A stretch of DNA of 64,000 nt from a plasmid. Both the position numbers and the translations under genes were made by a program. Below, in pieces: positions 24,592 through 64,000 of this stretch. The stretch lies in assembly GCF_988243305.1 (NCBI RefSeq), contig NZ_OZ547138.1; one strand, written 5' to 3'. The notes beneath the pieces were generated by a model that was not told the origin of the DNA, made no database searches, and saw only the letters and a program-made list of their open reading frames with translations. The number at the start of each line of letters is the position of its first letter. The stretch's first letter is position 1.

Positions 24592-25411
24592 GGCACTGTT
24601 GCAAATAGTCGGTGGTGATAAACTTATCATCCCCTTTTGCTGATGGAGCTGCACATGAACCCATTCAAAGGCCGGCATTTTCAGCGTGACATCATTCTGT
24701 GGGCCGTACGCTGGTACTGCAAATACGGCATCAGTTACCGTGAGCTGCAGGAGATGCTGGCTGAACGCGGAGTGAATGTCGATCACTCCACGATTTACCG
24801 CTGGGTTCAGCGTTATGCGCCTGAAATGGAAAAACGGCTGCGCTGGTACTGGCGTAACCCTTCCGATCTTTGCCCGTGGCACATGGATGAAACCTACGTG
24901 AAGGTCAATGGCCGCTGGGCGTATCTGTACCGGGCCGTCGACAGCCGGGGCCGCACTGTCGATTTTTATCTCTCCTCCCGTCGTAACAGCAAAGCTGCAT
25001 ACCGGTTTCTGGGTAAAATCCTCAACAACGTGAAGAAGTGGCAGATCCCGCGATTCATCAACACGGATAAAGCGCCCGCCTATGGTCGCGCGCTTGCTCT
25101 GCTCAAACGCGAAGGCCGGTGCCCGTCTGACGTTGAACACCGACAGATTAAGTACCGGAACAACGTGATTGAATGCGATCATGGCAAACTGAAACGGATA
25201 ATCGGCGCCACGCTGGGATTTAAATCCATGAAGACGGCTTACGCCACCATCAAAGGTATTGAGGTGATGCGTGCACTACGCAAAGGCCAGGCCTCAGCAT
25301 TTTATTATGGTGATCCCCTGGGCGAAATGCGCCTGGTAAGCAGAGTTTTTGAAATGTAAGGCCTTTGAATAAGACAAAAGGCTGCCTCATCGCTAACTTT
25401 GCAACAGTGCC
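24592..25411 (+). mobile_element. IS26: IS26 (820 bp) copy 1
   Basis: 14-bp terminal inverted repeats GGCACTGTTGCAAA (24592) and TTTGCAACAGTGCC (25411); no 8-bp target duplication. Confidence 0.95.
24655..25359 (+). CDS. tnpA: IS26 transposase Tnp26
   Basis: 234 aa MNPFKGRHFQRDIILWAVRWYCKYGISYRELQEM. Confidence 0.95.
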   Translation: MNPFKGRHFQRDIILWAVRWYCKYGISYRELQEMLAERGVNVDHSTIYRWVQRYAPEMEKRLRWYWRNPSDLCPWHMDETYVKVNGRWAYLYRAVDSRGRTVDFYLSSRRNSKAAYRFLGKILNNVKKWQIPRFINTDKAPAYGRALALLKREGRCPSDVEHRQIKYRNNVIECDHGKLKRIIGATLGFKSMKTAYATIKGIEVMRALRKGQASAFYYGDPLGEMRLVSRVFEM

Positions 25412-25480
25412 GGATTGAATATAACCGACGTGACTGTTACATTTAGGTGGCTAAACCCGTCAAGCCCTCAGGAGTGAATC

Positions 25481-26386
25481 ATGACCGTAGTCACGACCGC
25501 CGATACCTCCCAACTGTACGCACTTGCAGCCCGACATGGGCTCAAGCTCCATGGCCCGCTGACTGTCAATGAGCTTGGGCTCGACTATAGGATCGTGATC
25601 GCCACCGTCGACGATGGACGTCGGTGGGTGCTGCGCATCCCGCGCCGAGCCGAGGTAAGCGCGAAGGTCGAACCAGAGGCGCGGGTGCTGGCAATGCTCA
25701 AGAATCGCCTGCCGTTCGCGGTGCCGGACTGGCGCGTGGCCAACGCCGAGCTCGTTGCCTATCCCATGCTCGAAGACTCGACTGCGATGGTCATCCAGCC
25801 TGGTTCGTCCACGCCCGACTGGGTCGTGCCGCAGGACTCGGAGGTCTTCGCGGAGAGCTTCGCGACCGCGCTCGCCGCCCTGCATGCCGTCCCCATTTCC
25901 GCCGCCGTGGATGCGGGGATGCTCATCCGTACACCGACGCAGGCCCGTCAGAAGGTGGCCGACGACGTTGACCGCGTCCGACGCGAGTTCGTGGTGAACG
26001 ACAAGCGCCTCCACCGGTGGCAGCGCTGGCTCGACGACGATTCGTCGTGGCCAGATTTCTCCGTGGTGGTGCATGGCGATCTCTACGTGGGCCATGTGCT
26101 CATCGACAACACGGAGCGCGTCAGCGGGATGATCGACTGGAGCGAGGCCCGCGTTGATGACCCTGCCATCGACATGGCCGCGCACCTTATGGTCTTTGGT
26201 GAAGAGGGGCTCGCGAAGCTCCTCCTCACGTATGAAGCGGCCGGTGGCCGGGTGTGGCCGCGGCTCGCCCACCACATCGCGGAGCGCCTTGCGTTCGGGG
26301 CGGTCACCTACGCACTCTTCGCCCTCGACTCGGGTAACGAAGAGTACCTCGCTGCGGCGAAGGCGCAGCTCGCCGCAGCGGAATGA
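25481..26386 (+). CDS. mph(A): Macrolide 2'-phosphotransferase Mph(A)
   Basis: 301 aa MTVVTTADTSQLYALAARHGLKLHG; part of the canonical IS26-mph(A)-mrx-mphR(A)-IS6100 module. Confidence 0.95.
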   Translation: MTVVTTADTSQLYALAARHGLKLHGPLTVNELGLDYRIVIATVDDGRRWVLRIPRRAEVSAKVEPEARVLAMLKNRLPFAVPDWRVANAELVAYPMLEDSTAMVIQPGSSTPDWVVPQDSEVFAESFATALAALHAVPISAAVDAGMLIRTPTQARQKVADDVDRVRREFVVNDKRLHRWQRWLDDDSSWPDFSVVVHGDLYVGHVLIDNTERVSGMIDWSEARVDDPAIDMAAHLMVFGEEGLAKLLLTYEAAGGRVWPRLAHHIAERLAFGAVTYALFALDSGNEEYLAAAKAQLAAAE

Positions 26387-27621
26387 GCGAACGTCGATAT
26401 AGCCCGCTCGCGACGCTGTTCGCGGCGACCTTTCTCTTCCGGATCGGCAACGCGGTGGCGGCCCTCGCGCTTCCATGGTTCGTCCTGTCTCATACAAAGA
26501 GCGCGGCCTGGGCGGGCGCCACGGCCGCTAGCAGCGTCATCGCGACCATCATCGGCGCGTGGGTTGGTGGTGGCCTCGTCGATCGGTTCGGGCGCGCGCC
26601 CGTCGCATTGATCTCGGGTGTGGTGGGCGGCGTGGCCATGGCGAGCATCCCACTGCTCGATGCCGTTGGCGCCCTCTCGAACACTGGGCTGATCGCTTGC
26701 GTGGTGCTCGGTGCCGCGTTCGACGCACCCGGTATGGCCGCGCAGGACAGTGAGCTGCCCAAACTCGGCCACGTCGCCGGGCTCTCCGTTGAGCGCGTCT
26801 CGTCACTGAAAGCGGTGATCGGGAACGTCGCGATTCTAGGTGGCCCGGCCCTTGGGGGGGCCGCAATCGGCCTGCTTGGCGCTGCGCCAACGCTCGGGCT
26901 GACGGCGTTCTGCTCCGTCCTTGCAGGTCTGCTCGGCGCGTGGGTGCTTCCCGCGCGTGCCGCTCGGACGATGACCACGACGGCGACTCTCTCCATGCGC
27001 GCCGGCGTCGCTTTTCTCTGGAGCGAACCCCTGCTGCGCCCTCTCTTTGGTATAGTGATGATCTTCGTGGGCATCGTTGGCGCCAACGGCAGCGTCATCA
27101 TGCCTGCGCTGTTTGTAGATGCAGGACGCCAAGTAGCAGAGCTCGGGCTGTTCTCCTCAATGATGGGGGCTGGTGGTCTCCTTGGCATTGCCATTCATGC
27201 GTCGGTCGGCGCCCGGATATCAGCGCAGAACTGGCTGGCGGTGGCATTTTGTGGCTCTGCGGTGGGCTCGCTTCTGCTTTCACAGTTGCCAGGCGTGCCG
27301 GTGCTGATGTTGTTGGGCGCGCTCGTGGGACTGCTGACCGGCTCAGTCTCTCCCATTCTCAACGCTGCCATCTACAACCGCACGCCGCCAGAACTTCTCG
27401 GCCGGGTACTCGGCACGGTCTCGGCGGTGATGCTGTCAGCCTCGCCCATGGTTATGCTTGCGGCCGGCGCGTTTGTCGACCTTGCTGGTCCGCTCCCTGG
27501 CCTCGTTGTATCGGCCGTGTTTGCGGGGCTCGTGGCTCTACTCTCGCTCCGTCTTCAATTTGCTACAATGGCGGCGGCAGCCACAGCCTCCGCCCCAACC
27601 CATACAGAAGGTGAACACTGA
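26383..27621 (+). CDS. mrx: MFS-type membrane protein Mrx
   Basis: 412-aa polytopic membrane protein; start overlaps the mph(A) stop. Confidence 0.9.
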   Translation: MSERRYSPLATLFAATFLFRIGNAVAALALPWFVLSHTKSAAWAGATAASSVIATIIGAWVGGGLVDRFGRAPVALISGVVGGVAMASIPLLDAVGALSNTGLIACVVLGAAFDAPGMAAQDSELPKLGHVAGLSVERVSSLKAVIGNVAILGGPALGGAAIGLLGAAPTLGLTAFCSVLAGLLGAWVLPARAARTMTTTATLSMRAGVAFLWSEPLLRPLFGIVMIFVGIVGANGSVIMPALFVDAGRQVAELGLFSSMMGAGGLLGIAIHASVGARISAQNWLAVAFCGSAVGSLLLSQLPGVPVLMLLGALVGLLTGSVSPILNAAIYNRTPPELLGRVLGTVSAVMLSASPMVMLAAGAFVDLAGPLPGLVVSAVFAGLVALLSLRLQFATMAAAATASAPTHTEGEH

Positions 27622-28205
27622 TGCCCCGCCCCAAGCTCAAGTCCGATGACGAGGTACTCGAGGCCGCCACCGTAGTGCTGAAGCGTTGCGGTCCCATAGA
27701 GTTCACGCTCAGCGGAGTAGCAAAGGAGGTGGGGCTCTCCCGCGCAGCGTTAATCCAGCGCTTCACCAACCGCGATACGCTGCTGGTGAGGATGATGGAG
27801 CGCGGCGTCGAGCAGGTGCGGCATTACCTGAATGCGATACCGATAGGCGCAGGGCCGCAAGGGCTCTGGGAATTTTTGCAGGTGCTCGTTCGGAGCATGA
27901 ACACTCGCAACGACTTCTCGGTGAACTATCTCATCTCCTGGTACGAGCTCCAGGTGCCGGAGCTACGCACGCTTGCGATCCAGCGGAACCGCGCGGTGGT
28001 GGAGGGGATCCGCAAGCGACTGCCCCCAGGTGCTCCTGCGGCAGCTGAGTTGCTCCTGCACTCGGTCATCGCTGGCGCGACGATGCAGTGGGCCGTCGAT
28101 CCGGATGGTGAGCTAGCTGATCATGTGCTGGCTCAGATCGCTGCCATCCTGTGTTTAATGTTTCCCGAACACGACGATTTCCAACTCCTCCAGGCACATG
28201 CGTAA
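27621..28205 (+). CDS. mphR(A): TetR-family repressor MphR(A)
   Basis: 194 aa with N-terminal HTH; start overlaps the mrx stop. Confidence 0.9.
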   Translation: MPRPKLKSDDEVLEAATVVLKRCGPIEFTLSGVAKEVGLSRAALIQRFTNRDTLLVRMMERGVEQVRHYLNAIPIGAGPQGLWEFLQVLVRSMNTRNDFSVNYLISWYELQVPELRTLAIQRNRAVVEGIRKRLPPGAPAAAELLLHSVIAGATMQWAVDPDGELADHVLAQIAAILCLMFPEHDDFQLLQAHA

Positions 28206-45151: not shown

Positions 45152-45302
45152 CGCTTTTCAGTATCTCGACAGGGATAACTTACTTTACCATCGGTTATCC
45201 CTTTTAGCCGCACAAATTTTAGCCATGGCTTTTCAGGAAGTCAGGGCTATCAGAATGGCCTTAGAAAGCCTAGTCAAAGAGCTGTCACGAGAACACCGTT
45301 AG

Positions 45303-45340
45303 CTTAGCGTACGATTTTTTCCGAATTCTGCGGTTCCCCC
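45303..45340. mobile_element. 38-bp Tn3-family terminal inverted repeat, Tn1721-type, second copy
   Basis: CTTAGCGTACGATTTTTTCCGAATTCTGCGGTTCCCCC; same orientation as the copy at 39865. Confidence 0.75.
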
Positions 45341-45516
45341 TAGAAAGCTTCTTTAAATCATTAAAGGCTGAGTTGATTTGGCGCAGACACTGGCAAACAA
45401 GGCGAGATATTGAGATTGCAATCTTCGAATATATAAATGGCTTTTATAATCCACGCCGAAGACATTCAACACTCGGCTGGAAATCGCCGGTGGCATTTGA
45501 GAAAAAAGCCGCTTAA
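45341..45516 (+). pseudogene. 3' fragment of an IS3-family transposase gene (integrase-core C-terminus; IS1133-like remnant as in Tn5393)
   Basis: Translation ...IFEYINGFYNPRRRHSTLGWKSPVAFEKKAA* is a typical IS3-family OrfB C-terminus; abuts the Tn1721 IR. Confidence 0.5.
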
Positions 45517-51553: not shown

Positions 51554-53857
51554 TCAGAATCTTTTTTTACGACTCTCTTGTTTTCCACCTGATGGTGTCT
51601 GAGCGACATTTTTTTTATGGGGCGGGGATGCAGTTAGATCCGGTACAGGTAACAGCATCTCCAGGGGGAGCAGAGTATTCAGAATCGCCTTCACTGAAGG
51701 TATATCTTCAGGACCGGAGTGTTCCTCTTCCGGACGATTCAGTGTGATATAACATACCCGGCGTTCTTCCCTGGTTGTGTTATTGATAGTGTGCACAGCC
51801 TTTTTCCACAGTTCGTTTGCCCGGGATTCGATATCTGTATCATATTGCGGAAGCAGATCCAGTGATGTCTGCGCTGTTGCCAACTGGCGCTGGAATGTAT
51901 CAATGATACGGTAAGGCTCTGTACGGTTTTTACGACGTTTACGGGATGGTTTTGCTGTCAGTACACCGATGATGCTGCTGACATGCTCCGGTGTGGGGAG
52001 CCTGCGCTGCACTGTCCTGGGGACGAGACGGCGGAGACGCTCCAGCCGGGGGGCTTCAACGGAAATATAGCGGTTGATGACCACCGGATCACTGTCGCAA
52101 CTTTTCTCGCTGTCCGGAATATACACAGAGGCTGACGGCACCACATCCCCCTGGAAAACGGTAAAGAACTCACCAGCATTCAGTCTGATCAAATCCTGCA
52201 CGTCGATTTTGCTTTCCATCTGGATGGTGATCTGGTTACCGTCCACCCAGGACTCACCCATCACACCATCGTGGCGCTGCAGGCTGCCCATTCTGGCCCG
52301 TGCCTCTTCACCGGCGGCATTTTTCACCGTTCTTGCCGTTTTGTCGTCACTGACAATGCGTCCGGCGAATTTGGTGCCGGCGTTCTGCATCAGTGTGGCG
52401 GTGTTGGTGGCGGAGGTCTGCCCTTCAATTCGCTCCTGATCCTGCGCCGTCATTATCAGGGAAAACTCCAGTGAACGTACCTGGGTGGCCTCCACAGCAA
52501 TGCGGTCTGTGTAGTAGGCACCGACTTCGTCAAGGATACAGATATAGGGGAAGCTGCCTTTGTATTTTTTGACTTCCAGGGTCTGTGCATCTGTGCCTTC
52601 CAGCCGGTAGCCCAGGTCACGGGCGAGGAGCATGCTCTGCTGGGTGACGAACATACGACCGAGTGCCGACGTGGTATGAGCCGATGTGTCCAGTGCAGGG
52701 ATCATCACAATCAGAATGCGGTCGCTGTGAATACTGTCGCGAATATCGATGTCGCCGGCATCTGCCGCAAAGACGTCCCCGAAGGTTTCGGCAAAGGTTG
52801 TGAACGTTTCCGAGAACTGACCGGAGAGATAAGCATGCTGTTTACGGGGCTCCTCAGTCCAGGCTGACGGCGTTCTCACCAGTGACATATCGAATCCCGG
52901 GACATCCTGCAGGTAGTTTCGCAGTGGTGCGATAGCTTCTTCCGGCCACTGGTCATCAAGGCCACGGCAATAGAGTTTTGCCATCCCTTCCAGCGTCATA
53001 TGTTCCCGTAACATCTGCAGGGACATGGTTTTACCTTCCCGGACGCACCAGAATTTTGTGCCAAAGACCAGGGCCTTGTTCATGGCTATCGCCCGTGACT
53101 GCCATTCACCGCCCTGAACGTTCTGGGGCAGCATGGACTGCATGGTTTCGGCGGTGAAGGCTTCGGTGCTGAATGCGAACGGGTTCCAGGTGTTTGACTG
53201 TGGGCGGGATTTTTCGCCGCTCTGAATGATTTCACTGCGGGATTTTCCGCCGTTCATGAAGTTGATGACTTCGATATCATCCTCCCTGCCAAAACGTCGG
53301 GAGAGATACCAGATTGTCCTCGTGGTATCGTTCTGTGCCTTTCCGTCAACAAAGGTAAAGCCTCTTCCCCAGCAGAGCGGGTTGAGCAGCCAGGCAAAGG
53401 TGGTTTCTGTTTTACCGCCACCGGTGGTGGCAAAAAACATGACATGCCGGGTGAGGTCATCCATGCTCAGCCAGAGCTCACGACCGATATCGTTGATACG
53501 GCGGTAACCGACATAAAAAATCCCCCGGGCGGGGAATGTTTCATCCGCTTCATACTGAAACAGGGTGGGCCAGAAGCTGAAGAGGCTTCTCCTGACCTTT
53601 CTGTCCTGGGAGGGGTCATCAAGGCTGAGTGTCATGGGCATACGCAGGGGGCATCGCCAGCGTTGCAGCATGAATATCACGGAGGTGACCAGGGTGAACA
53701 GCAGGCAGACAGGAAGGGCCAGTGGCCATATCAGCGCCGTAATGATACTGCCGGCCAGACACAGACCAGTGATGTTCAGGTTATGCAGTGCATTCCACAA
53801 CGGGTTTCCCCAGGCCGTGCGGTGTATGAGGTCAGGATTAACGTGGTGCTGGCTCAT
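51554..53857 (-). CDS. trbC: Conjugal transfer ATPase TrbC (type IVB coupling-protein-like, Walker A)
   Basis: 767 aa; N-terminal transmembrane segments, Walker A FFATTGGGKTET; trbA-trbB-trbC operon convergent with nikB. Confidence 0.8.
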   Translation of the reverse strand: MSQHHVNPDLIHRTAWGNPLWNALHNLNITGLCLAGSIITALIWPLALPVCLLFTLVTSVIFMLQRWRCPLRMPMTLSLDDPSQDRKVRRSLFSFWPTLFQYEADETFPARGIFYVGYRRINDIGRELWLSMDDLTRHVMFFATTGGGKTETTFAWLLNPLCWGRGFTFVDGKAQNDTTRTIWYLSRRFGREDDIEVINFMNGGKSRSEIIQSGEKSRPQSNTWNPFAFSTEAFTAETMQSMLPQNVQGGEWQSRAIAMNKALVFGTKFWCVREGKTMSLQMLREHMTLEGMAKLYCRGLDDQWPEEAIAPLRNYLQDVPGFDMSLVRTPSAWTEEPRKQHAYLSGQFSETFTTFAETFGDVFAADAGDIDIRDSIHSDRILIVMIPALDTSAHTTSALGRMFVTQQSMLLARDLGYRLEGTDAQTLEVKKYKGSFPYICILDEVGAYYTDRIAVEATQVRSLEFSLIMTAQDQERIEGQTSATNTATLMQNAGTKFAGRIVSDDKTARTVKNAAGEEARARMGSLQRHDGVMGESWVDGNQITIQMESKIDVQDLIRLNAGEFFTVFQGDVVPSASVYIPDSEKSCDSDPVVINRYISVEAPRLERLRRLVPRTVQRRLPTPEHVSSIIGVLTAKPSRKRRKNRTEPYRIIDTFQRQLATAQTSLDLLPQYDTDIESRANELWKKAVHTINNTTREERRVCYITLNRPEEEHSGPEDIPSVKAILNTLLPLEMLLPVPDLTASPPHKKNVAQTPSGGKQESRKKRF

Positions 53858-54962
53858 TGTGATACTCCTCGCTATCTGTTGCTTTCAGGAAGAGGCGAAC
53901 GGAAGTGGCGTCTTTCAGGATGCCGGACGGCAGGTGCCAGCCGGTATCTGATAACACCCAGGGGGTTCCGCCAAAACCGAACTGGCGGAAAGCCTGGTTA
54001 TTGACATCGATGGCAGCACGTGCGGCGGTCAGACACTGTCCATCCTGTGCGGCCGGTGCATCGCCGGTGGGGGCCATACCACTGTCAGCGGAATACAGCT
54101 GATGCCATCCGGTCGCCCGTTTTTGTGAGTCCGGTTCACACAGCAGCGGAGCAGTCCGCTTTGTACTGGACTCCCCGCCAATCACGGAGACCGGATAAAT
54201 CACCACGCTGAATTCCCGGGCCAGTTGCTTAAGCGCGGGTTCCAGCAGACGGCAGTTGATGCATGCGGGGTCAAGGAAGGCGTACAGCGTGCGTTCATGA
54301 CCAGTGGACAGGTTAATGGTGAACATCCCCCGGTCTGCGTTGCGTTTAAGTACTGTGGCCAGATTACGGCGGGCCTCAGCGGCCTGAACGTGTTGTTCTT
54401 CCGTCACTGCCGTCGGGGCGGGGGCAGAAGAAGGTTCCTGCTGTGTGGGAGCCGGGCGGGCCGGGATGCTGTTAACATGATGTTCCGTATGTGGGCGTGG
54501 TGTCTCTGTGTCGGTTACTGGTTCAGCTCTCCATTCCTGAGATGTAGGGTAAGCCAGCGTGGAAGGGGGCTCTGCCTTCATCCAGTGGTAACCTGCAACT
54601 GTCGCCGGCAGAGCAATTCCGGCGATAAAGCCACACATCAGTGTCCGCCAGAAGCCATTTTTCCGGGAGGGATGTTTTCCTTTTCCGGCATATTCGGCAT
54701 CCAGGCAGGCATCAATCGCTGAGAGCATTCTGCCGATGTGATGTCCGGGACGTTCTGCATCAACGGTATCAACAAGCACCGTTTCGGTTATTTCGCGAAA
54801 AGGGGAACTGAAGGACAGGTGCATCAGCCTGTTATTACGGTTAATCAGTGCGCCCAGTTCTGTGACTGGCAGGATGGCAATCACCTCCCGATTACCGTCA
54901 GGGTACAGGGCGATCAGGGACAGGTGTTTATTATTCAGTGTTGCAGTGTAGTGGATGGTCAT
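53838..54962 (-). CDS. trbB: Conjugal transfer protein TrbB (thioredoxin-like, CxxC)
   Basis: 374 aa with CINC motif, Pro/Thr-rich linker and a transmembrane segment. Confidence 0.7.
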   Translation of the reverse strand: MTIHYTATLNNKHLSLIALYPDGNREVIAILPVTELGALINRNNRLMHLSFSSPFREITETVLVDTVDAERPGHHIGRMLSAIDACLDAEYAGKGKHPSRKNGFWRTLMCGFIAGIALPATVAGYHWMKAEPPSTLAYPTSQEWRAEPVTDTETPRPHTEHHVNSIPARPAPTQQEPSSAPAPTAVTEEQHVQAAEARRNLATVLKRNADRGMFTINLSTGHERTLYAFLDPACINCRLLEPALKQLAREFSVVIYPVSVIGGESSTKRTAPLLCEPDSQKRATGWHQLYSADSGMAPTGDAPAAQDGQCLTAARAAIDVNNQAFRQFGFGGTPWVLSDTGWHLPSGILKDATSVRLFLKATDSEEYHNEPAPR

Positions 54963-56293
54963 TGTTCTTTTTCCTTGTCGGCGGGATGCTGTTTTTCGGT
55001 GGTTTCGGTGGTTTCGGTGGTTTCGGTGGTTTCGGTGGTTTCGGTGGTTTCGGTGGTTTCGGTGGTTTCGGTGGTTTCACCAGTGTCAGTGTCTTCGTCG
55101 TTATCATGGCGGCGGGGTATCACGTCATCCGTGAGTGACCAGCGGGTCCTGATCTGACGTTTACGATCGCGATCTGGCTGAGGTTCGTCCCATATCAGGC
55201 CCAGCCCCAGCATGTCCCGTCGAAGCCCTTCAATGGCCTCTTCCACACAGGGTTCCGGGCAGGGGAGGCCGAGACGGCTGGCTTCATTTTCTGCCCGGGC
55301 AACGGCCACCACGCCGGCCCCTTCGATGAAGCCTTTTGTGGTGTTTGCCCGGTGAAGGGCATAGAAGAGCGTCCGGTCAACGCCCTTGAGCCACAGCCAG
55401 TTCGGAGGCGTCAGGCGCAAATCATGTGCGTAAAGCCAGACCAGACCGCTGCGAACGTAACGGTGCTGCCTGAGCCACTGTTGTGCGCCTTCTGTTTTGA
55501 TGACCCGGATAAAGGCGTTTCTGGCCAGTGAATACACCGGCGTGCTGAAACGCCCCTGGTCCCGTTTACTTTTGAGCCTGCAGGAGAGATTGAGGTTGTT
55601 CATCAGGGCTACCGCTGCTTTCCGGTCACCGAGGAAGAACTGCAGGCCAAAGATGGCAAAGAGCGCTTTTTCATGTGGGGCCATGTCTTTCCAGCTGGTC
55701 AGTGGTTGCCCCAGTTGCGCCATGAAGCACTGGCGTGTGGACGCAACATCGAGCTGCATGTTGCGGATAAGGTTGTTCTGCTCCACAAAGACTTCGGGGG
55801 TTAGTGCGACACGGCGCTCGGGACGTTTTTGTCCGTGGAAGAGTCTGTTGTTGTCTCCATCAGCCAGAACGGGGGCGATCGCCGGTGACAGAGCTGAAAA
55901 AATATGGGGCAGTGTGTGGATATTCAGTGGCCTGCGGGTAAAACGGGGCTGGGCCGGATGGTGAAACCACATCCACAGAAAGCCGAATGTCATGGGAAGC
56001 AGAATCAACCAGAGGATCCCCACTGTCCGGGACATAACATCCAGCCACTGGCCGAAAGTGATGGTTGCCGCGTTGTTAGCAGTGATGGCCAGCAGGTTGT
56101 AACGGGGGGCGGCAAAGTTGTGAAAGGGCCCCCAGTCAATCATGCCCCACAGTGTGTGCAGGATCAGGCAGGAGGCGAAGACGATTTCAGGTAAAAAGCG
56201 CCAGATGATAATCGCAAAGAGCAGGCATATGGCACCGACGATATACCATATAGCCATTGGATCTTCGGCGGCAGACGTCTGTTGGTAAGACAC
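54959..56293 (-). CDS. trbA: Conjugal transfer membrane protein TrbA with C-terminal TET tandem repeat
   Basis: 444-aa polytopic membrane protein, first gene of the trb operon; C-terminus GETTETTETTETTETTETTETTETTE. Confidence 0.7.
   Translation of the reverse strand: MSYQQTSAAEDPMAIWYIVGAICLLFAIIIWRFLPEIVFASCLILHTLWGMIDWGPFHNFAAPRYNLLAITANNAATITFGQWLDVMSRTVGILWLILLPMTFGFLWMWFHHPAQPRFTRRPLNIHTLPHIFSALSPAIAPVLADGDNNRLFHGQKRPERRVALTPEVFVEQNNLIRNMQLDVASTRQCFMAQLGQPLTSWKDMAPHEKALFAIFGLQFFLGDRKAAVALMNNLNLSCRLKSKRDQGRFSTPVYSLARNAFIRVIKTEGAQQWLRQHRYVRSGLVWLYAHDLRLTPPNWLWLKGVDRTLFYALHRANTTKGFIEGAGVVAVARAENEASRLGLPCPEPCVEEAIEGLRRDMLGLGLIWDEPQPDRDRKRQIRTRWSLTDDVIPRRHDNDEDTDTGETTETTETTETTETTETTETTETTETTEKQHPADKEKEQ
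54994..55080. repeat. Tandem 9-bp repeat (GGTTTCGGT, about 9.5 copies) within the 3' end of trbA
   Basis: Perfect tandem repeats read directly; encode the (TTE)n tract on the minus strand. Confidence 0.85.
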
Positions 56294-56436
56294 GGGGATT
56301 CCTCCATCGATAAATAGATAAATTTCGGGATGAGGCTGAGTGGAATTAATGCGAACAATCGCCGGTAATGACTGGGCAGGGCTGAATTCAGCAGGGCATT
56401 TTCACAGGAACAGCAGAAGGTGGTGAGAGACAGGCA

Positions 56437-56535
56437 CAAAAAAGCCGACTGGTGAGGCCGGCTTTTTTGCGATCCCAGGGAGAGTGGGTGGCTCTGGCCC
56501 GGAGGAAGTCTCTTTTCAACTAACGTTACCAGAAT
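56437..56535 (-). ncRNA. Candidate antisense antitoxin small RNA 1 (predicted, type I TA unit 1)
   Basis: Minus-strand promoter-like TTGCGA-17-TATTCT near 56560-56590, 34-nt segment complementary to the toxin-1 5' UTR (motif 56491-56524 versus 56727-56758), terminated by a hairpin plus T-run on the minus strand (56437-56467). Confidence 0.35.
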
Positions 56536-56829
56536 ATCGTTATATTCACCTGATCGCAATCTGTTCGTTACAGTCTATTGTTCCGGGAGTAGCGATATCG
56601 CCTGAAACAAGTATAATCAGCAAGTTAGCCTTGTCTGGAGACTTACCTTCGCATCAATCCATCGGGACTATGGATCTGTGCTATTCAAAGACCTGGCCGG
56701 ACAAACAGGTGGTGCTGCGTCTGGTGCTCTGGCCGGAGGAAGTCTCTTTTCAGCTAACAATGAAAGAGCTGTTGTGACAGGCAATGTAAGAGTAAACAAC
56801 AGTGATTTCCTCCATTGATGGAGAAACGG

Positions 56830-56925
56830 ATGATTAACCTGTTAATCATCGTTCTCAGGGCGGTTGTTGCTGTGGCTAACGCAGTGATAGCAATCCTGGA
56901 ACTGATCCGGGAACTGGTTGACTGA
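56830..56925 (+). CDS. Candidate DinQ/TisB-like type I toxin, 31-aa hydrophobic peptide (copy 1)
   Basis: MINLLIIVLRAVVAVANAVIAILELIRELVD; RBS GGAG embedded in the palindrome CTCCATTGATGGAG; strong terminator downstream. Confidence 0.55.
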   Translation: MINLLIIVLRAVVAVANAVIAILELIRELVD

Positions 56926-56946
56926 TAATCCCGGAAACGTACTTAA

Positions 56947-56975
56947 GGGCAGAGGGTCACCGCCCTCTGCCCTTT
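56947..56975 (+). terminator. Rho-independent terminator of toxin unit 1
   Basis: 10-bp stem GGGCAGAGGG-tcaccg-CCCTCTGCCC followed by TTT. Confidence 0.6.
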
Positions 56976-57163
56976 AATAATCTACGGACAGATTACTTTC
57001 TGTACTTCCAGAGCCTGTTTCTGTGAGTCAAACATGAGCTGGTTTTTACCGACTACACCCAAGTAAATATATTCGATATCTCCCATTTGCCGTATTTTCG
57101 TAAAATTCAACAGGAAATATTCAACGGGAGTGAGAGAACTGCTGTCCGGGGAGGAGGTACAGA

Positions 57164-57262
57164 CGCAAAAAAACCGACTGGTGAGGCCGGTTTTTTTGCG
57201 ATTCCGGATCGAAGTTGGTAGCCCTGACCGGAAGATAACTGCCTATAACTGACTATGAAATA
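57164..57262 (-). ncRNA. Candidate antisense antitoxin small RNA 2 (predicted, type I TA unit 2)
   Basis: Minus-strand promoter-like TTGCAG-17-TATTAT near 57285-57315, segment 57221-57252 matching the toxin-2 5' UTR motif (57410-57441), hairpin plus T-run 57166-57197. Confidence 0.35.
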
Positions 57263-57513
57263 ATACGGCTGAAATAATATTTCTGCAAGCACAGTATAAG
57301 TATATACTCGGTGTGTCAGCTTTGAGGCACGTTCTTTCCGGCATATCGTTCACCGGGATGAACAGGTTGCAAGTCCTGGCCAAAACATCAGGTGGTGCTG
57401 GTTTTGGTGCTCTGGCCGGAGAAGAACTGTCTATAACTGACACTATAGAAAACGTGGCGACAGGCAATGTAAGGGCAAACCACGGTGTTCTTTCTCCATT
57501 GATGGAGAAGCGG

Positions 57514-57609
57514 ATGATTAACCTGTTAATCATCGTTCTCAGGGCGGTTGTTGCTGTGGCTAACGCAGTGATAGCAATCCTGGAACTGATCCGGGAACTG
57601 GTTGACTGA
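57514..57609 (+). CDS. Candidate DinQ/TisB-like type I toxin, 31-aa peptide (copy 2, identical coding sequence)
   Basis: Coding sequence identical to 56830-56925, same RBS palindrome and terminator. Confidence 0.55.
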   Translation: MINLLIIVLRAVVAVANAVIAILELIRELVD

Positions 57610-57630
57610 TAATCCCGGAAACGTACTTAA

Positions 57631-57659
57631 GGGCAGAGGGTCACCGCCTTCTGCCCTTT
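57631..57659 (+). terminator. Rho-independent terminator of toxin unit 2
   Basis: GGGCAGAGGG-tcaccg-CCTTCTGCCC followed by TTT. Confidence 0.6.
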
Positions 57660-57997
57660 AACAAAATATGCTCAGGTTAAAAATCGAAAACCTTCCTGCA
57701 CTTCCTGTGCCTGTTCCCGTGAGTCAAACATGAGCCGGCTTTTACCCGGAACTCCCCAGGAAATATATTCTACATCCACCCACCATTTTCCGTATTCTTC
57801 ATACGGTCCGGATATCACTTTAGTGACAAATGCATCAACCAGGTTCATTTTTACACCTTTCTGTTATTCTGCTTATTACGACCAGCAGACAGCAAATATT
57901 AAAAATAACGCGGCGGTAAAAATGGCAATTTTTTCCATGCTGTATTTTTGCCATTTATTTTCTTTGAAATGGTTTTTTTCTTCATATCAGCAAATAA

Positions 57998-58465
57998 TTA
58001 TTTCTTATTCTGTTTTCTCCAGGTCCATGGTGGTACCGGATTTTTATCTGCCCATAATCCCCGCTTCAGGGCGCGGGCATCACGCTGGAGCGGCGGGAGA
58101 GTATAGTCATTATTGTAGTCCGGGTACACCCAGGCAGCGCCGTTACGGACCTGCCAGCGATTTGCTTCTGTGCCGTCAGCGGTATAGACCCGGCCGAGAA
58201 TACGGCCATACCTGTCTGTCTGCGCGTATTGCACGGTTACGGGCTTTCCGGCCACCAGGTCCTTCAGCTGAGTGGCTGACCAGCGTCCAAAGGGCTGTTT
58301 CTTTTCCGGTGCATCAATATTAGCCAGACGGACCCTGACAGGCTTTTTGTCCTGTAATATTTCCAGCGTATCACCATCAAGAACGCGGATGACGTGCCCC
58401 TGAATCTGTGCGGCACAGAGAGAGGCGGAAAAAATAATGGTGAGTGAAAATATATATTTTATCAT
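57998..58465 (-). CDS. nuc: Secreted thermonuclease-like endonuclease (SNase family, plasmid nuc-type)
   Basis: 155 aa with signal peptide and SNase-like motifs (VIRVLDGDTLEI, RLANIDAPE, DRYGRILGRV). Confidence 0.8.
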   Translation of the reverse strand: MIKYIFSLTIIFSASLCAAQIQGHVIRVLDGDTLEILQDKKPVRVRLANIDAPEKKQPFGRWSATQLKDLVAGKPVTVQYAQTDRYGRILGRVYTADGTEANRWQVRNGAAWVYPDYNNDYTLPPLQRDARALKRGLWADKNPVPPWTWRKQNKK

Positions 58466-58567
58466 TTCATCGTCTCCTTTTTATTTATGAAAACAGGTGC
58501 AATTAATATTGCGAAATAATAACGTTCAGGTGTGTTTTTTTTGGCAGTGTGATACTTCACGCAGGGC

Positions 58568-59248
58568 ATGAATTCCAGTACGCTGATATCCGTGATGATA
58601 CGGCAACAGATATCCGGTGACGGTATGCAGGAACATATTGATTATCAGATTGAGAAATATCAGTTCAGGGCCAGGAATGAGTCACCGCGACTGATGCGCC
58701 AGTGGGAAGATGTCATGCGTGAATGCCGTGATACCGGAGCAGGAGCCAGGGAGCGGCTGCGGATTGCCTTACTTAATGTTGATTATGTGACCAGTTTTGA
58801 ACTGCCGTTTCGTCTGCTGTTAACCCGGACACCGCAGATGATTGACAGCGTGCGGCGGGAATGGCAGCTCAGCCAGAAAAAAGTTGTATTCAATGAGCGG
58901 CAGCGGGGATGTGTATACAGTCTGCAGAATGACTTATCCGGCGTGCCGGATAGCTTCAGTTACAGTCTTGCGACGCGAATACGGCGGGCGGACAGCTATG
59001 GCATGACGACGCGTTGTTTCACTGATATAGCCGGGCAGGTTAAAGCCCCGACAGCACGGCTGAAACTGGCGCTGGAAAGCGGGTTAATTGTCACCGCGCT
59101 GGATGGTCTGTTCTGGCTTGGTATTCAACGTATTGCCGCAGATGTGCAGCGGCTGCGTCAGTCCGGAATGACAATCATCACCCGGGATGTTGAGGTCTCA
59201 GACTCGCTGACCGGAACCACACGGGTTGTTTCCGGGTACAGCCTTTGA
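58568..59248 (+). CDS. Hypothetical protein (start uncertain, possibly ATG 58626)
   Basis: 226-aa ORF; no recognisable motif. Confidence 0.4.
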   Translation: MNSSTLISVMIRQQISGDGMQEHIDYQIEKYQFRARNESPRLMRQWEDVMRECRDTGAGARERLRIALLNVDYVTSFELPFRLLLTRTPQMIDSVRREWQLSQKKVVFNERQRGCVYSLQNDLSGVPDSFSYSLATRIRRADSYGMTTRCFTDIAGQVKAPTARLKLALESGLIVTALDGLFWLGIQRIAADVQRLRQSGMTIITRDVEVSDSLTGTTRVVSGYSL

Positions 59249-59449
59249 TTTATGCAACAAAGTATCGCAGCGTCGAATATGAGCTATGGCCAGATTTTTG
59301 TTAATCGTGGTTGTTGCAACATGTAAGGCGAATGACCACACTATTCTGGCACGCTCGTAATCATGCTGAAATTCTGCTTCCTGTCCTGCCGTGATGAGTT
59401 CCGACCAGGACATACGGCGAAGTGTATGTCTGTCAGTAATATCCGTCAT
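59198..59449 (-). CDS. Small hypothetical protein (fourth gene of a coupled four-gene cluster)
   Basis: 83 aa; start overlaps the upstream gene stop by 4 nt. Confidence 0.35.
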   Translation of the reverse strand: MTDITDRHTLRRMSWSELITAGQEAEFQHDYERARIVWSFALHVATTTINKNLAIAHIRRCDTLLHKSKAVPGNNPCGSGQRV

Positions 59450-59661
59450 GAGCTCTCAGCCTCCTCCTTCGTATTTCCGTCAGAAACACAAACGCCCCGC
59501 AGAGAAAATTCGCCAACATTCTCCTTTTTAATGGCGCGCAATGCATCGCGGCAGGCCCGTTCGGTATGAAAGGCCTGGCTGTGCACCGCCAGTGTGGGCT
59601 GACGGGCATCACCGGAAGAGACATTAAAGGGCGATGAAAGCCAGAAAATCAGTAGCCACAT
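59446..59661 (-). CDS. Small hypothetical protein with N-terminal hydrophobic segment (third gene)
   Basis: 71 aa; MWLLIFWLSSPF signal-like N-terminus. Confidence 0.35.
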   Translation of the reverse strand: MWLLIFWLSSPFNVSSGDARQPTLAVHSQAFHTERACRDALRAIKKENVGEFSLRGVCVSDGNTKEEAESS

Positions 59662-59664
59662 GCG

Positions 59665-60048
59665 TCACACCTCGTCCTTTTTATGCGGGTATCTGGACAG
59701 AATATTGAGCGCCTGTAATGGCGCTTCATGCATTTCACGGATACAACGGGCATCGGTGATATTTTCCCGGTAATGTGTGGTTTCCAGCATCATATGATGC
59801 ATATGGAGCATCCGGGCCAGGGCTGCGCGGAGTTCTTCAATATGTTGTTCATGGGAATGCTGGCGGGGCTGTATCCGGCAGAGAGGGATAACCTCCACAT
59901 CATCCGGGTGCGCGCGAAGCCACGCGTCAGTGACTGCAATGTCGTCAGTGTAAAACCATGTGCCGGATGTCCCGTTGGCCAGAAAACGCATTTTCCAGGT
60001 TTCTGGGGTGGCGGTTGTGTTGTTATCTTTCATGGTGCCACCACTCAT
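59665..60048 (-). CDS. Hypothetical protein (second gene)
   Basis: 127 aa; start overlaps the upstream gene stop. Confidence 0.4.
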   Translation of the reverse strand: MSGGTMKDNNTTATPETWKMRFLANGTSGTWFYTDDIAVTDAWLRAHPDDVEVIPLCRIQPRQHSHEQHIEELRAALARMLHMHHMMLETTHYRENITDARCIREMHEAPLQALNILSRYPHKKDEV

Positions 60049-60236
60049 TCAACAGGCTTAATGCTGTCCAGGCGCAGTCTGCTCAGACTGTCGTGGCTGC
60101 CACAGCGGCGTCCAGTGCTTTTGCTGTAGCACTCCTGCCCCCTGATACACCATGCCGTTGGCGTTTCGTAGAGGCTGACACGTCGGGTTTTATCTTTAAT
60201 GATGAGAAGCCCGGTGTGAGTTTTTGTCTTTTTCAT
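60045..60236 (-). CDS. Small hypothetical protein (first gene)
   Basis: 63 aa. Confidence 0.3.
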   Translation of the reverse strand: MKKTKTHTGLLIIKDKTRRVSLYETPTAWCIRGQECYSKSTGRRCGSHDSLSRLRLDSIKPVE

Positions 60237-60323
60237 CGGTGGGGTACAAACGCAGAAATTTTGTTGTCATCAGTTTTTGCCTGCAGAGGCCTGAAAAGAC
60301 AGCGTTTTCAGGCCCTGTTCAGG

Positions 60324-60566
60324 TTAGTGAATATTCTTGCCTGGCTTTTCGGCAATATCAATCCCCTGAAGTTGCATGGATATCCCATGCCCATTGAGCA
60401 TCTGGCTGTCCATGGAATGGATACCGCATGTCATCATCAGGTTGTAACAAAGCGTACTCAGCATGGTGAGCGCCTCTTCTGAGGATTTACAATGTGTATT
60501 CATAAGGGCCAGAAACTGCTCAACAACATCCGGGTTAATGCTGGTACTGTGTATTTCATCCTTCAT
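60324..60566 (-). CDS. Small hypothetical protein (start taken at MKDEIHST)
   Basis: 80 aa from an internal ATG with a weak RBS; the longer ORF extends to 60644. Confidence 0.35.
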   Translation of the reverse strand: MKDEIHSTSINPDVVEQFLALMNTHCKSSEEALTMLSTLCYNLMMTCGIHSMDSQMLNGHGISMQLQGIDIAEKPGKNIH

Positions 60567-60747
60567 GATGTGTCCTTGTTTTTTATTATTTTGCATTTCA
60601 GAAAATAACACGATGCCTGCAGCCCGGAAAACAGATGTGTGCACACGTAGTCACTTTCCGGCTTTATTTCTGTCCCTGACACAAAATACGTGGTGGCATG
60701 AAAAGGATTGTGGCGGACAGGAAAACGATTAGAATAGCGGCGGGCGC

Positions 60748-61041
60748 TTGAGGCTGTATGCCGAAAGCGTTTTGTGGACGGCATGTAGCAGAAAGCCCCA
60801 GGCGATTTTTTTATCAATCAACCCAGGGCCCACTGTAATGCCTAGACAACATTATAGTAGCCCGATGACGGCCGAAAGGCAATGGAGGGGCTGCGATGCC
60901 ACAACGAACGTTTTTAATGATGTTAATCGTCGTCTGTGTGACGATACTGTGTTTTGTCTGGATGGTGAGGGATTCGCTTTGCGGATTTCGTATCGAGCAG
61001 GGAAATACGGTGTTTGTGGCAACGTTAGCCTACGAAGTTAA
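60748..61041 (+). CDS. pndC: Candidate PndC (mok-like frame overlapping pndA; true start uncertain)
   Basis: ORF overlapping pndA in another frame, as in hok/mok-type loci. Confidence 0.35.
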   Translation: MRLYAESVLWTACSRKPQAIFLSINPGPTVMPRQHYSSPMTAERQWRGCDATTNVFNDVNRRLCDDTVFCLDGEGFALRISYRAGKYGVCGNVSLRS

Positions 61042-61048
61042 ACGTTAA
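60896..61048 (+). CDS. pndA: Hok-family type I toxin PndA
   Basis: 50 aa MPQRTFLMMLIVVCVTILCFVWMVRDSLCGFRIEQGNTVFVATLAYEVKR, GGAGG RBS. Confidence 0.85.
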   Translation: MPQRTFLMMLIVVCVTILCFVWMVRDSLCGFRIEQGNTVFVATLAYEVKR

Positions 61049-61185
61049 CGGGCAACACGGCGGCAGGACATCTGCCGCCGGATTGTTGCGAAGGCTGACC
61101 TCAATGCGCCTTGTTTGTCTTTTTTACCGGACGACTGCTGGATGCTGCTGTCCGGCAGCTATTATTTTTTCCGTCCTGTGCGTCA

Positions 61186-62772
61186 TCAATTATGACAGTC
61201 GCTCTCATTTGGTTGTCTCTGGTTAGATGTATTATTAGATATTTTCGGGGTAATTCGATAAAAGTTATCCACTTCAGCACCAGACTGAATGATATATGCA
61301 ATAAGATCTAAACGATGAATCTCGTATCGTGTACGTAACTCCATCATTTCACGCCATGCTAAAATCCTTGATGTTTTCAGTTCAGCCTCTATAAGTTTCC
61401 ATGTGTTTGTTGAGATGGCATGTTCTTCCAGCTGACGTAACGAGAACCTATCACTAATGACCAACCATCCCCATCCTCGAGTATGTGCCCATTTGCGACC
61501 TGCATTACTTTTTATTCTCGTGAGACTCAAGGTCATTCGGTCTGTTGGCTTCACTTCCATAAGTAGGCACCGACCATCAACTGTCGCAATGAGTAAATCT
61601 GGATAGTATTTTTTTGATTTGTTTTTAAAACAATATGGAATAGAAAATGGTTGTTCTTGATAGAAAAGAACCTGATCGCAACATTCTAATAGATTCATTA
61701 TTTTAAACTCAAGCCCTGATTCGTACTGGACTGTACGACCTAATTTTTGAGAGTAAAAGAATCCAGATATGTCAGTATCATTAACCGCTCTCTGTGAACA
61801 TAGCTGTTCTACGGGGGGAGGAGGTGCGATATATTTTGGCCAATGTGTATTGTCTAGCCATTTACTGAATATGAACTCAACTCTTTCTTTCTTGATTCGG
61901 GCTCTTTCCTGAGCGTGAGCGTGTGCTAATTCTGCTCTTCGTTCACGTAACTTCTGCTTTTGTAATTGTGATATTAATGAGAGCGAATTTTTTATTTCAT
62001 CTCGTCTTGCTTTAGGAATGCCTGCGGCAAAAATGATGAATTTGGCGGCTAACTCAGAGGATGTAACGAAATCCCGATGAACAATACGATAAATCCATAC
62101 TGCTATATCATATGGTGAATTACCTATTGAGTTAATAAGGGCTTTAAGGCAAGCTCCAGGTGTCCCTTCATAGCGAGATTTAGCAGCTAGTAAGCCAAGG
62201 GCTCGTTCCTGAAGTTGTCTTACCCTTTCACGGGAAATTCCTAATTTGACGGCAATATCTGCCAGAGAATGAGGTGAATCATCTGTGCCGAGTCGCATTA
62301 GAAGAATATATTGATGTCGTTTATTAGATAAACTTTCGATAGCAGAATGAATTAGCATAATGACATCATGTTCATCGGCTATATAATCTTTAAAATCTGT
62401 ATTGGGTTGGCAGAGGGGGAGTGGGGTATTTTGTTTAAAACTATTCTTTTGTATTTCAACTTTATCATGAGCAATTGTTTTTGCAGTGCTCAATGATATT
62501 AAATTATTGATGATACTATTGTGTTCTTGGCGAGGAATCTTGTTGAAGTAATTGCTGAGATCATTCACCGTGTTTATATCGTTGAACTCAAGAAACTCAG
62601 AAGGAAGCAGGCGTTTGATTGCTCCACGTATTCCCCCGGACGATCGTTGATGTGTTTGAGTAAGTTTTTTTAGCGAGACGCCCTCCGCTATGGATACGAG
62701 AAGACGCTGTAACTCTTCAGTATTCCATGGAGTACCATGTCGTGCTGGAAAATTGCTGCGGGATTCAGACAT
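61186..62772 (-). CDS. Hypothetical protein combining a sigma-70 region-4-like HTH with a C-terminal PD-(D/E)xK (TnsA-like) nuclease-fold domain
   Basis: 528 aa; middle segment LADIAVKLGISRERVRQLQERALGLL; C-terminal YESGLEFK...YPDLLIATVDGRCLLMEVKP resembles the E...D...EVK catalytic arrangement of TnsA-like endonucleases. Confidence 0.5.
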   Translation of the reverse strand: MSESRSNFPARHGTPWNTEELQRLLVSIAEGVSLKKLTQTHQRSSGGIRGAIKRLLPSEFLEFNDINTVNDLSNYFNKIPRQEHNSIINNLISLSTAKTIAHDKVEIQKNSFKQNTPLPLCQPNTDFKDYIADEHDVIMLIHSAIESLSNKRHQYILLMRLGTDDSPHSLADIAVKLGISRERVRQLQERALGLLAAKSRYEGTPGACLKALINSIGNSPYDIAVWIYRIVHRDFVTSSELAAKFIIFAAGIPKARRDEIKNSLSLISQLQKQKLRERRAELAHAHAQERARIKKERVEFIFSKWLDNTHWPKYIAPPPPVEQLCSQRAVNDTDISGFFYSQKLGRTVQYESGLEFKIMNLLECCDQVLFYQEQPFSIPYCFKNKSKKYYPDLLIATVDGRCLLMEVKPTDRMTLSLTRIKSNAGRKWAHTRGWGWLVISDRFSLRQLEEHAISTNTWKLIEAELKTSRILAWREMMELRTRYEIHRLDLIAYIIQSGAEVDNFYRITPKISNNTSNQRQPNESDCHN

Positions 62773-63045
62773 GATTTTATCTTTATGTTTTCTAGGTACT
62801 GCCTTGAGTGTGTGGTTATGATAATTATTTATAATGATATTGTTATCTTTTATAGATAACTGATATGCAGAATTGTATTGATTTTGTCTACAGTGGGCAA
62901 GACAGTGCTAAGAATTTGTGGGGAAAACATAGAGACTCCATGCGGCGTCCTGAGATAGACGGCAGACAGGCATTCTGCCTGAAAAGAAAAAGCCGGTTCA
63001 GAGAAAACCGGCTGACGGATTATCGTCTAACAGTTGATAGCTACC

Positions 63046-63693
63046 TCAAAATACTTCTGCAACAGGAACACCGGCAACTTTTTCCCACTCTTTAACCCGA
63101 TACCGGATCATCTGTGGGAAACGTTCCTTGTACTCATATCCACGTGCAGCCATGGTGTGCATGGTGTTGGCCAGCGTCCTTGATGAGATGCCGGAGATTT
63201 CCAGTGGGATCATCGGCAGACTCACATATGTAGTGTGGATTTCCAGCTTGCCGTCTTCAGCAACCGTGCGGGTAAAGTTGTGAATATCCAGACCAATCAC
63301 ATCCATCACATTGTTCGGATAAATGCGCACATACAGCATGGTGCCGTTTTTAATGTCGATCCCGAAATAACAACTCTTCGAGAATGACAGTTGCTCATAA
63401 TCGCTGGTTGGAGCAAAGTGACAGCTTTCTTTTATCTGCTGAACAACCTGCTGGACTTTCTTTTTTTTCGCTCTGGTTCTCAGATATAGCCAGAGTAATG
63501 GGAGAATTATTAATGCCCAGCATCCATATGCAAAAATAAAATCCATTGTTTGAGATAAGGCTGAATCATGAACAATTAGTGTTCCGAAAAAAGCATAAAA
63601 TAATAAGCATGGTATGCCAAATATGAAATACGCATTGCGAACAAGGTAATAATATGGCCACCAGGAAGGATATCTGCTTTTTGTTGTACTCAT
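63046..63693 (-). CDS. Inner-membrane protein (two N-terminal TM helices plus soluble domain); possible entry-exclusion (ExcA-like) protein
   Basis: 215 aa; sits directly downstream of a partial gene that may be a traY-like transfer gene; exclusion assignment is positional only. Confidence 0.4.
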   Translation of the reverse strand: MSTTKSRYPSWWPYYYLVRNAYFIFGIPCLLFYAFFGTLIVHDSALSQTMDFIFAYGCWALIILPLLWLYLRTRAKKKKVQQVVQQIKESCHFAPTSDYEQLSFSKSCYFGIDIKNGTMLYVRIYPNNVMDVIGLDIHNFTRTVAEDGKLEIHTTYVSLPMIPLEISGISSRTLANTMHTMAARGYEYKERFPQMIRYRVKEWEKVAGVPVAEVF

Positions 63694-63780
63694 AATAAAC
63701 CCCCATATTCACCTGAATATATTTTAATCTCTTCAGGTGAATATGGCAATAGTGTTTTATTGGTTTTTCGATATTTTTAT

Positions 63781-64000
63781 TTATTGTTTTATTCCGTCTT
63801 TATCATCTCCATTAACATTTTTCAGTTTTTCTTCACGAACGCCAGGTGTTCTGCGCATATTGGTATTACCTCCGGCAATAATATCTTTGACTGAAGAAAC
63901 CATATTCCCCAGCATATTAACACCGTCACGTCCGCCCAGAAAATTAATTACATGGTCAGGCAGATAAGCCTGAAGCGCAAAAACGGCTGCAACCAGTGTG
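63781..64000 (-). CDS. 3' end of a gene running off the window (C-terminus ...KDIIAGGNTNMRRTPGVREEKLKNVNGDDKDGIKQ); possibly a conjugal transfer gene
   Basis: Open minus-strand frame from the window edge to stop TAA at 63781-63783; partial, absent from the ORF track. Confidence 0.4.
   Translation of the reverse strand, partial: TLVAAVFALQAYLPDHVINFLGGRDGVNMLGNMVSSVKDIIAGGNTNMRRTPGVREEKLKNVNGDDKDGIKQ

Follow-up and report, generated by a model that had tools for sequence, protein, structure and literature searches.

The interval between trbA and pnd on an I-complex plasmid very probably represents the ordinary trbA-excA slot of the IncB/O/K/Z branch

Conjugative plasmids of the I-complex are divided into cluster 1 (I1/Igamma) and cluster 2 (B/O/K/Z), and the tra, trb and nik genes are weakly conserved between the two clusters (PMC10286972). 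The trbA-pnd-excA region of R64 and ColIb-P9 was described by Furuya & Komano in 1996, as cited in PMC10286972 and PMC4083329, and the IncK1 plasmid pCT (NC_014477) was sequenced in 2011 by Cottell et al., who highlighted its sigma-like gene pCT_066 (PMC3377399). Among the small toxin genes found on such plasmids, the dql genes were defined as a family in 2016 (PMC5066626); dqlB has been reported for 83.2% of the IncB/O/K/Z plasmids and for 67.4% of those of IncI1, and both the base-pairing action and the role as an addiction module of the dqlB-agrB system of pOXA-48 have been shown experimentally (PMC12365149). Here we compare with these systems a 64,000-nucleotide (nt) stretch of plasmid DNA (contig NZ_OZ547138.1 of RefSeq assembly GCF_988243305.1, hereafter the window) and, within it, the interval from trbA to the pnd toxin-antitoxin locus (56293–61048, from the trbA start to the pndA stop). 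An initial annotation had reported a gap of about 4.5 kb between the two loci and had suggested either lineage-specific accessory DNA or a plasmid of a related I-complex group.

The gap was confirmed, the trbA start codon lying at 56293 and the pndA ATG at 60896 in the list of open reading frames (ORFs), a separation of 4602 bp, while the homology to R64 pnd detected by BLAST begins at 60701, 4407 bp from the trbA start. All of the contents that had been reported for it (tandem toxin units, the nuclease gene nuc, an ORF of 226 amino acids (aa) and a cluster of small genes) were found at 56438–60644. Comparison with reference plasmids indicated that the interval is, with high confidence, the ordinary intergenic slot between trbA and excA in the IncB/O/K/Z branch (cluster 2) of I-complex conjugative plasmids.

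Positions 53801–64000 of the window aligned as a single collinear BLAST piece with the IncB/O reference p3521 (NC_014843, 99.1%) and likewise with the IncZ reference pOT-ESBL-0589 (MN335640, 98.5%). Both carry, like the window, two dqlB units, nuc, a winged-helix gene (the 226-aa ORF), the small genes, pnd, a TnsA-like gene and excA, and in the slot region they differ from the window only by point differences and by the number of 9-bp repeats in trbA. The same gene order was found at 95–99.7% identity in pCT, where 420 bp of the first toxin unit are missing (leaving one complete dqlB ORF and a partial first unit) and a 2.64-kb IS21-family element lies between nuc and the winged-helix gene, and at 92–96% identity in the IncK2 plasmid pDV10, which has one dqlB unit and no TnsA-like gene. 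Between the starts of trbA and pndA there are 4602 bp in the window, 4601 bp in p3521, 4590 bp in pOT-ESBL-0589, 3688 bp in pDV10 and 6822 bp in pCT (4182 bp minus the insertion sequence (IS)). By collinearity and identity across trbC-excA, the window groups with the B/O, Z and K references of cluster 2. In PLSDB, at least 80% of the interval occurred in one place in 315 records and the R64-type trbA-pnd junction in 751, a split that matches the published division between cluster 1 and cluster 2. The gene order is already known from reference plasmids published from 2011 onward and from hundreds of database records and, as the IncB/O/K/Z references show the order of the window, no anomaly is left to explain.

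The IncI1 and IncIgamma plasmids are organised differently. In R64 and ColIb-P9 (analysed as the RefSeq records NC_005014 and NC_002122), trbA is followed by pnd, an 83-aa gene, dqlB, a 58-aa gene, a HEAT-like small gene and excA, the trbA-excA slot is only 2.3–2.5 kb long, and pndA starts 291 bp from the trbA start, so that the closeness of trbA and pnd expected for IncI1 plasmids in the initial annotation was correct; R621a (IncIgamma) has an R64-like order plus finQ, with 1712 bp from trbA to pndA. In the window, pnd lies 4602 bp and not about 0.3 kb from trbA, and the trb and exc genes lack the near-identity of an IncI1 plasmid (72% nt for trbA, 69% nt for trbB/C and 51% aa for ExcA against R64). 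The modules common to the window and the R64 slot are pnd (90% nt identity), one dqlB/AgrB-like unit (74% nt) and the 58-aa gene (83% aa). The dqlB unit is on the excA side of pnd in R64 and on the trbA side in the window, a difference in order that no single insertion could produce. The nuc, winged-helix, 71-aa and 127-aa genes had no counterpart in the slots of R64, ColIb-P9 or R621a, and the slots of R64 and ColIb-P9 are without the TnsA-like gene that the window possesses. As to whether reference plasmids share the gene order, on which the initial annotation had made its suggestion depend, the IncI1 references differ from the window whereas the IncB/O/K/Z references match it. Its second alternative, a related I-complex group, is upheld (flanks at 69–72% nt identity to R64, and 10 kb collinear with the IncB/O, IncZ and IncK references), while its first, lineage-specific accessory DNA, holds only in the weak sense that the DNA is specific to B/O/K/Z plasmids and varies in content within that clade, and not as an insertion into an IncI1 backbone.

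From its beginning in the parA/impB region, the window crosses the leading region, nikAB, a resistance region and trbCBA before reaching the slot, excA and the start of traY; no rep gene was found within this extent. The whole window is, however, approximately 100% identical to p1-S1-KEN-03-A (NZ_CP145695.1, 126 kb), whose rep region is 98.3% identical to that of pCT and whose RNAI stem-loop is identical to that of pCT and unlike those of R64, ColIb-P9, R621a and pDV10. The plasmid is therefore likely to be IncK1, judged by proxy from this near-identical relative. The typing goes no further than the proxy because the same interval is also found at 100% identity on the K2/Z-typed plasmid NZ_CP141095.1 and because backbones are mosaic. 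In terms of replicons, p3521 is B/O and pOT-ESBL-0589 is Z, while the nearest complete relative of the window has the K1-type RNAI. NZ_CP141095.1 carries a 2.66-kb group II intron (ltrA) in the leading region just upstream of ssb (24992–27654 of the compared stretch), which the window is without at the corresponding point (9299/9300).

The flanks of the slot comprise the following features:

54959–56293, minus strand: trbA, 444 aa, DotM-like, the left anchor of the slot (Pfam DotM_C, E=2e-47)
54994–55078, minus strand: 9-bp tandem repeat, 9.4 copies, at the 3' end of trbA, encoding a Thr-Glu-Thr repeat tail (Tandem Repeats Finder (TRF), 100% matches)
61186–62772, minus strand: gene for a 528-aa protein that joins a TnsA-like endonuclease domain at the N-terminus to sigma-70 region 4 (Pfam Tn7_TnsA-like_N, Sigma70_r4)
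63046–63693, minus strand: excA, the right anchor of the slot (annotated by the Prokaryotic Genome Annotation Pipeline (PGAP); 51% aa identity to R64 ExcA)

The trbA gene of the window is 95% identical (nt) to that of pCT, compared with 72% nt and 77% aa identity to R64 trbA, and R64 TrbA (402 aa) is without the Thr-Glu-Thr tail of the window protein. In relatives of the window trbA measures 1299, 1317, 1326 or 1335 nt; since any two of these lengths are separated by a multiple of 9 nt, the 9-bp repeat is polymorphic in copy number. The 528-aa protein corresponds to pCT_066, the unusual ‘putative sigma factor’ of pCT; in pDV10 its gene is absent, its place being taken by a short stretch and, after it, a small HEAT-like gene.

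The part of the slot next to trbA is occupied by two toxin units in tandem, at 56438–57096 and 57159–57864, whose copies are 72–95% identical with a spacing of 684–729 bp; at about 700 bp they were missed by TRF (longest period 500) and were detected by a separate repeat search. Their features are:

56436–56523, minus strand: AgrB-like antisense small RNA (sRNA) of unit 1 (Rfam RF02891 AgrB, 37.4 bits, below the gathering score of 40)
56830–56925, plus strand: dqlB copy 1, a 31-aa DinQ-like type I toxin (NCBIfam NF041473 DqlB, 65.4 bits against a cutoff of 35; annotated by PGAP in NZ_CP069452)
56982–57110, minus strand: what remains of the 58-aa gene in unit 1, truncated to 42 aa and closing the unit (61% identity to residues 25–52 of the R64 58-aa protein by tblastn)
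57165–57252, minus strand: AgrB-like antisense sRNA of unit 2 (Rfam AgrB, 47.7 bits against a gathering score of 40, E=7e-6)
57514–57609, plus strand: dqlB copy 2 (PGAP annotation; 94% aa identity to R64 DqlB)
57672–57848, minus strand: conserved small gene of 58 aa, convergent with dqlB (83% aa identity to its R64 counterpart; phrog_8110, E=2e-18)

Both units resemble the dqlB-agrB system of pOXA-48 (PMC12365149) and the chromosomal dinQ-agrB system (PMC3567139, PMC5066626) in their short hydrophobic toxin of the DqlB family and in a divergent upstream AgrB-like RNA that shares a repeat of 26–33 nt with the toxin leader. In unit 1, a 26-nt stretch of the sRNA gene (56499–56524) recurs with 96% identity in the dqlB leader (56733–56758) and, in unit 2, a 33-nt repeat (57221–57253 and 57409–57441) is 82% identical. 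Since each sRNA is on the opposite strand and shares its repeat with the leader, it would be complementary to the leader of the dqlB mRNA. The predicted units thus combine a toxin peptide with a divergent AgrB-type sRNA complementary to the 5' untranslated region, as in the dinQ-like (dqlB-agrB) family. They differ from the described systems in being two diverged tandem copies, the first with a sub-threshold AgrB match and a truncated 58-aa gene. The ORF of dqlB copy 1 is intact and encodes the same 31 aa as copy 2; the first unit nevertheless looks partly decayed, given that its 58-aa gene is cut to a 42-aa remnant and its AgrB-like RNA falls below the Rfam threshold (37.4 against 40).

At the other end of the interval lies the pnd locus:

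60701–61110, plus strand: pndACB, a type I toxin-antitoxin locus of the hok/sok family (BLAST, 90% nt identity to R64 pnd)
60896–61048, plus strand: pndA, a 50-aa Hok/Gef toxin (Pfam HOK_GEF, 46.7 bits)

Rfam sok matched 60742–60898 (125.6 bits against a gathering score of 59), and an ORF at 60748–61041, overlapping pndA in another frame, is consistent with pndC, so that the locus has the toxin ORF, the conserved mRNA/antisense region and the overlapping leader ORF of the hok/sok family. While pnd is 90% identical (nt) between the window and R64, all other shared neighbouring DNA is 69–74% identical; this high conservation could reflect strong constraint on the fold of the mRNA or an exchange of the cassette between the branches. 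One additional partial copy of the pnd 5' region was seen in each of R621a and ColIb-P9, the comparison being of 60701–61110 of the window with 3978–4388, 45185–45351 and 5100–5226 of the compared IncI1/Igamma stretches. R64 was lost rapidly once its pnd operon had been inactivated (Furuya & Komano 1996, as cited in PMC4083329), whereas pCT was no less stable after inactivation of its pndACB (pCT_065) (PMC4083329); in pMS7163B, also of cluster 2, pnd emerged as a conjugation hit from transposon sequencing, but a defined mutant was without phenotype (PMC10286972).

Between the toxin units and pnd are nuc, the winged-helix gene and the small genes, the latter spanning 59198–60644:

57998–58465, minus strand: nuc, a 155-aa thermonuclease of the SNase type (Pfam SNase, E=6.5e-22, 78.5 bits against 21; PDB thermonuclease, E~1e-12)
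58568–59248, plus strand: 226-aa ORF (207 aa from the PGAP start), the winged-helix gene, ECs1377 family (NCBIfam NF052300, 299.6 bits against a cutoff of 190)
59198–59449, minus strand: 83-aa ORF with a weak match to the ANR (AraC negative regulator) family (NCBIfam ANR_neg_reg, 20.6 bits, below the cutoff of 32)
59446–59661, minus strand: 71-aa hypothetical gene (phrog_3766, E=2.5e-11; annotated in pCT, p3521 and pDV10)
59665–60048, minus strand: 127-aa ORF (122 aa in PGAP), hypothetical, conserved in pCT and pDV10
60324–60566, minus strand: 80-aa hypothetical gene adjoining pnd (annotated in pCT, p3521 and pDV10)

With these matches and with the catalytic and Ca-binding motifs in its translation (DGDT, RLANIDAPE and DRYGR), nuc belongs to the SNase family; its product is probably exported, as suggested by a signal-like N-terminal segment. 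The gene is the counterpart of pCT_057, which was named a ‘parB-like nuclease’ in PMC4083329. The name parB_2 of PMC10286972 was considered for nuc and rejected, as parB_2 sits in the leading region downstream of ssb. The 226-aa ORF has a C-terminal winged helix (Pfam HTH_39) and also matches phrog_24243, and as a gene divergent to nuc it may regulate nuc; both of its families, ECs1377 and phrog_24243, derive from phage or prophage collections.

The 127-, 71- and 83-aa ORFs form a tightly packed run on the minus strand, in which the start of the 83-aa ORF overlaps the stop of the 71-aa gene (ATGA) and the same ORF runs, on the opposite strand, into the 3' end of the 226-aa gene. In many public records the 83-aa ORF bears the label ‘neurotensin receptor R8’, which is an annotation artefact. 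No function could be assigned to the 127-aa and 80-aa proteins from Pfam, NCBIfam, PHROGs, PADLOC or PDB sequences, the 127-aa protein matching neither a family nor a PDB entry, and the 71-aa and 58-aa proteins matched only PHROG families without function (phrog_3766 and phrog_8110). In a single BLASTP comparison, the 80-aa protein was 36% identical over 42 aa (E=1e-4) to the 83-aa protein that adjoins pnd in R64. Exact copies of the 71-aa and 122-aa proteins are encoded on chromosome-size contigs (5.4–5.5 Mb), so that these modules are not confined to plasmids. A simple promoter and terminator scan of the DNA gave no excess over the shuffled expectation and was not used.

The slot lies between two leftward-transcribed transfer operons, trbABC and excA-traY, and we propose that it carries maintenance and accessory modules and not transfer genes. 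In the IncI1/Igamma branch the slot is short, with the shared modules (pnd, one dqlB unit and the 58-aa gene) reordered and pnd adjoining trbA, and the 4.5-kb gap of the window therefore most probably reflects old divergence and module reshuffling between the branches and not a recent insertion. The two type I toxin-antitoxin families appear to be the most plausible functional parts of the slot: on plasmid loss the unstable antisense RNA would decay and the toxin would kill the cell. By analogy with R64 pnd and pOXA-48 dqlB-agrB, we infer that both types may act here as post-segregational killers.

Several observations weigh against an assignment to a fixed cluster 2 backbone. The Inc group is taken from a near-identical plasmid, the replicon being outside the window, and the slot is not invariant within the clade, as illustrated by the 420-bp loss and the IS in pCT, by the lack of the TnsA-like gene in pDV10 and by swaps of cargo in plasmids of Shiga toxin-producing Escherichia coli (STEC). 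Two such STEC plasmids, NZ_CP027324.1 and pO104_H21, both keep nuc with the winged-helix gene and the 80-aa gene with hok, and in both a DUF2569 gene and a phosphoethanolamine transferase gene replace the 71- and 127-aa genes; trbA and dqlB were seen in NZ_CP027324.1 only and excA in pO104_H21 only. Extra cargo in NZ_CP027324.1 consists of vapBC, a second hok and a GNAT/DUF1778 toxin pair, while pO104_H21 carries epeA beside nuc, and IS elements are inserted in the slot in pCT and several other plasmids. Given this variation, the term ‘backbone’ is only approximate. Furthermore, in the work of Cottell et al. (2014) on pCT, inactivation of pndACB, the nuclease gene (pCT_057) or pCT_066 left plasmid stability unchanged, and inactivation of pndACB or pCT_066 also left conjugation, growth, biofilm formation and competitive index unchanged (PMC4083329), so that the maintenance role assumed for these modules is no more than putative in this clade.

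Such variation would suit a slot that is a freely exchanging cargo hotspot, of which the window merely displays one of many states and not the clade backbone: the two STEC plasmids carry different cargo between shared genes, IS elements have inserted in pCT and others, the TnsA-like gene is variably present and finQ sits in the R621a slot. We consider this somewhat unlikely, since 315 PLSDB records retain at least 80% of exactly this interval and references of four Inc types (B/O, Z, K1 and K2) share it at 95–99% identity, from which it follows that the state seen in the window is dominant and vertically stable. The slot is best described as a site that tolerates cargo but has one dominant state, which is the state of the window. 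Less probable again are two further proposals, improbable even when taken jointly: that the clade-specific core of nuclease, winged-helix gene and 127-, 71- and 83-aa ORFs works as one unit, which could provide B/O/K/Z plasmids with a function of their own, for example in exclusion, establishment or anti-defence, based on a regulated nuclease, or that the 410-bp pnd cassette, which lies at a different position relative to every shared neighbour between the branches, moves between them as a self-contained element.

A recent accessory insertion of about 4.5 kb between trbA and pnd of an R64-like IncI1 plasmid might have been expected from the 291 bp that separate the two loci in R64 and ColIb-P9 and from the presence of the nuc, winged-helix, 71-aa and 127-aa genes, which lack IncI1/Igamma counterparts and several of which match phage protein families. 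This is highly improbable, however, as the flanks themselves are not IncI1, the dqlB unit stands on the other side of pnd in an order that simple insertion could not attain, and no IS or transposase was found at the borders of the interval; moreover, the order is common to all of the B/O/K/Z references, and the collinearity of p3521 and pOT-ESBL-0589 refutes the insertion. An assembly artefact that created the tandem units, and hence the length of the interval, can be given almost no credence: although units so alike over approximately 700 bp are a kind of repeat that short-read assemblers can mishandle, the copies are diverged and not identical, and the two-unit structure recurs in p3521 and pOT-ESBL-0589, which are independent and complete, as well as in dozens of records at 100% identity. 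The ordinary cluster 2 slot accordingly remains our preferred interpretation of the interval.

Although its importance is small beyond correct annotation, the distance between trbA and pnd offers a quick marker by which a fragment without a replicon can be assigned to IncB/O/K/Z rather than IncI1, which is useful because typing of I-complex plasmids by replicon only is unreliable and their backbones are mosaic (PMC10286972). The trbA-excA slot is also where these plasmids hold type I toxin-antitoxin loci and gain cargo. Elsewhere in the window, approximately 23740–51500 is taken up by a large resistance region, flanked by trbC and by the nikB end of the oriT operon. Its contents include IS26 copies, an ISVsa3 element and a Tn3-family element together with sul2, aph(3'')-Ib, aph(6)-Id and tet(A); p3521 too carries resistance genes (sul2, aph(3'')-Ib and blaTEM-1) beside trbC.

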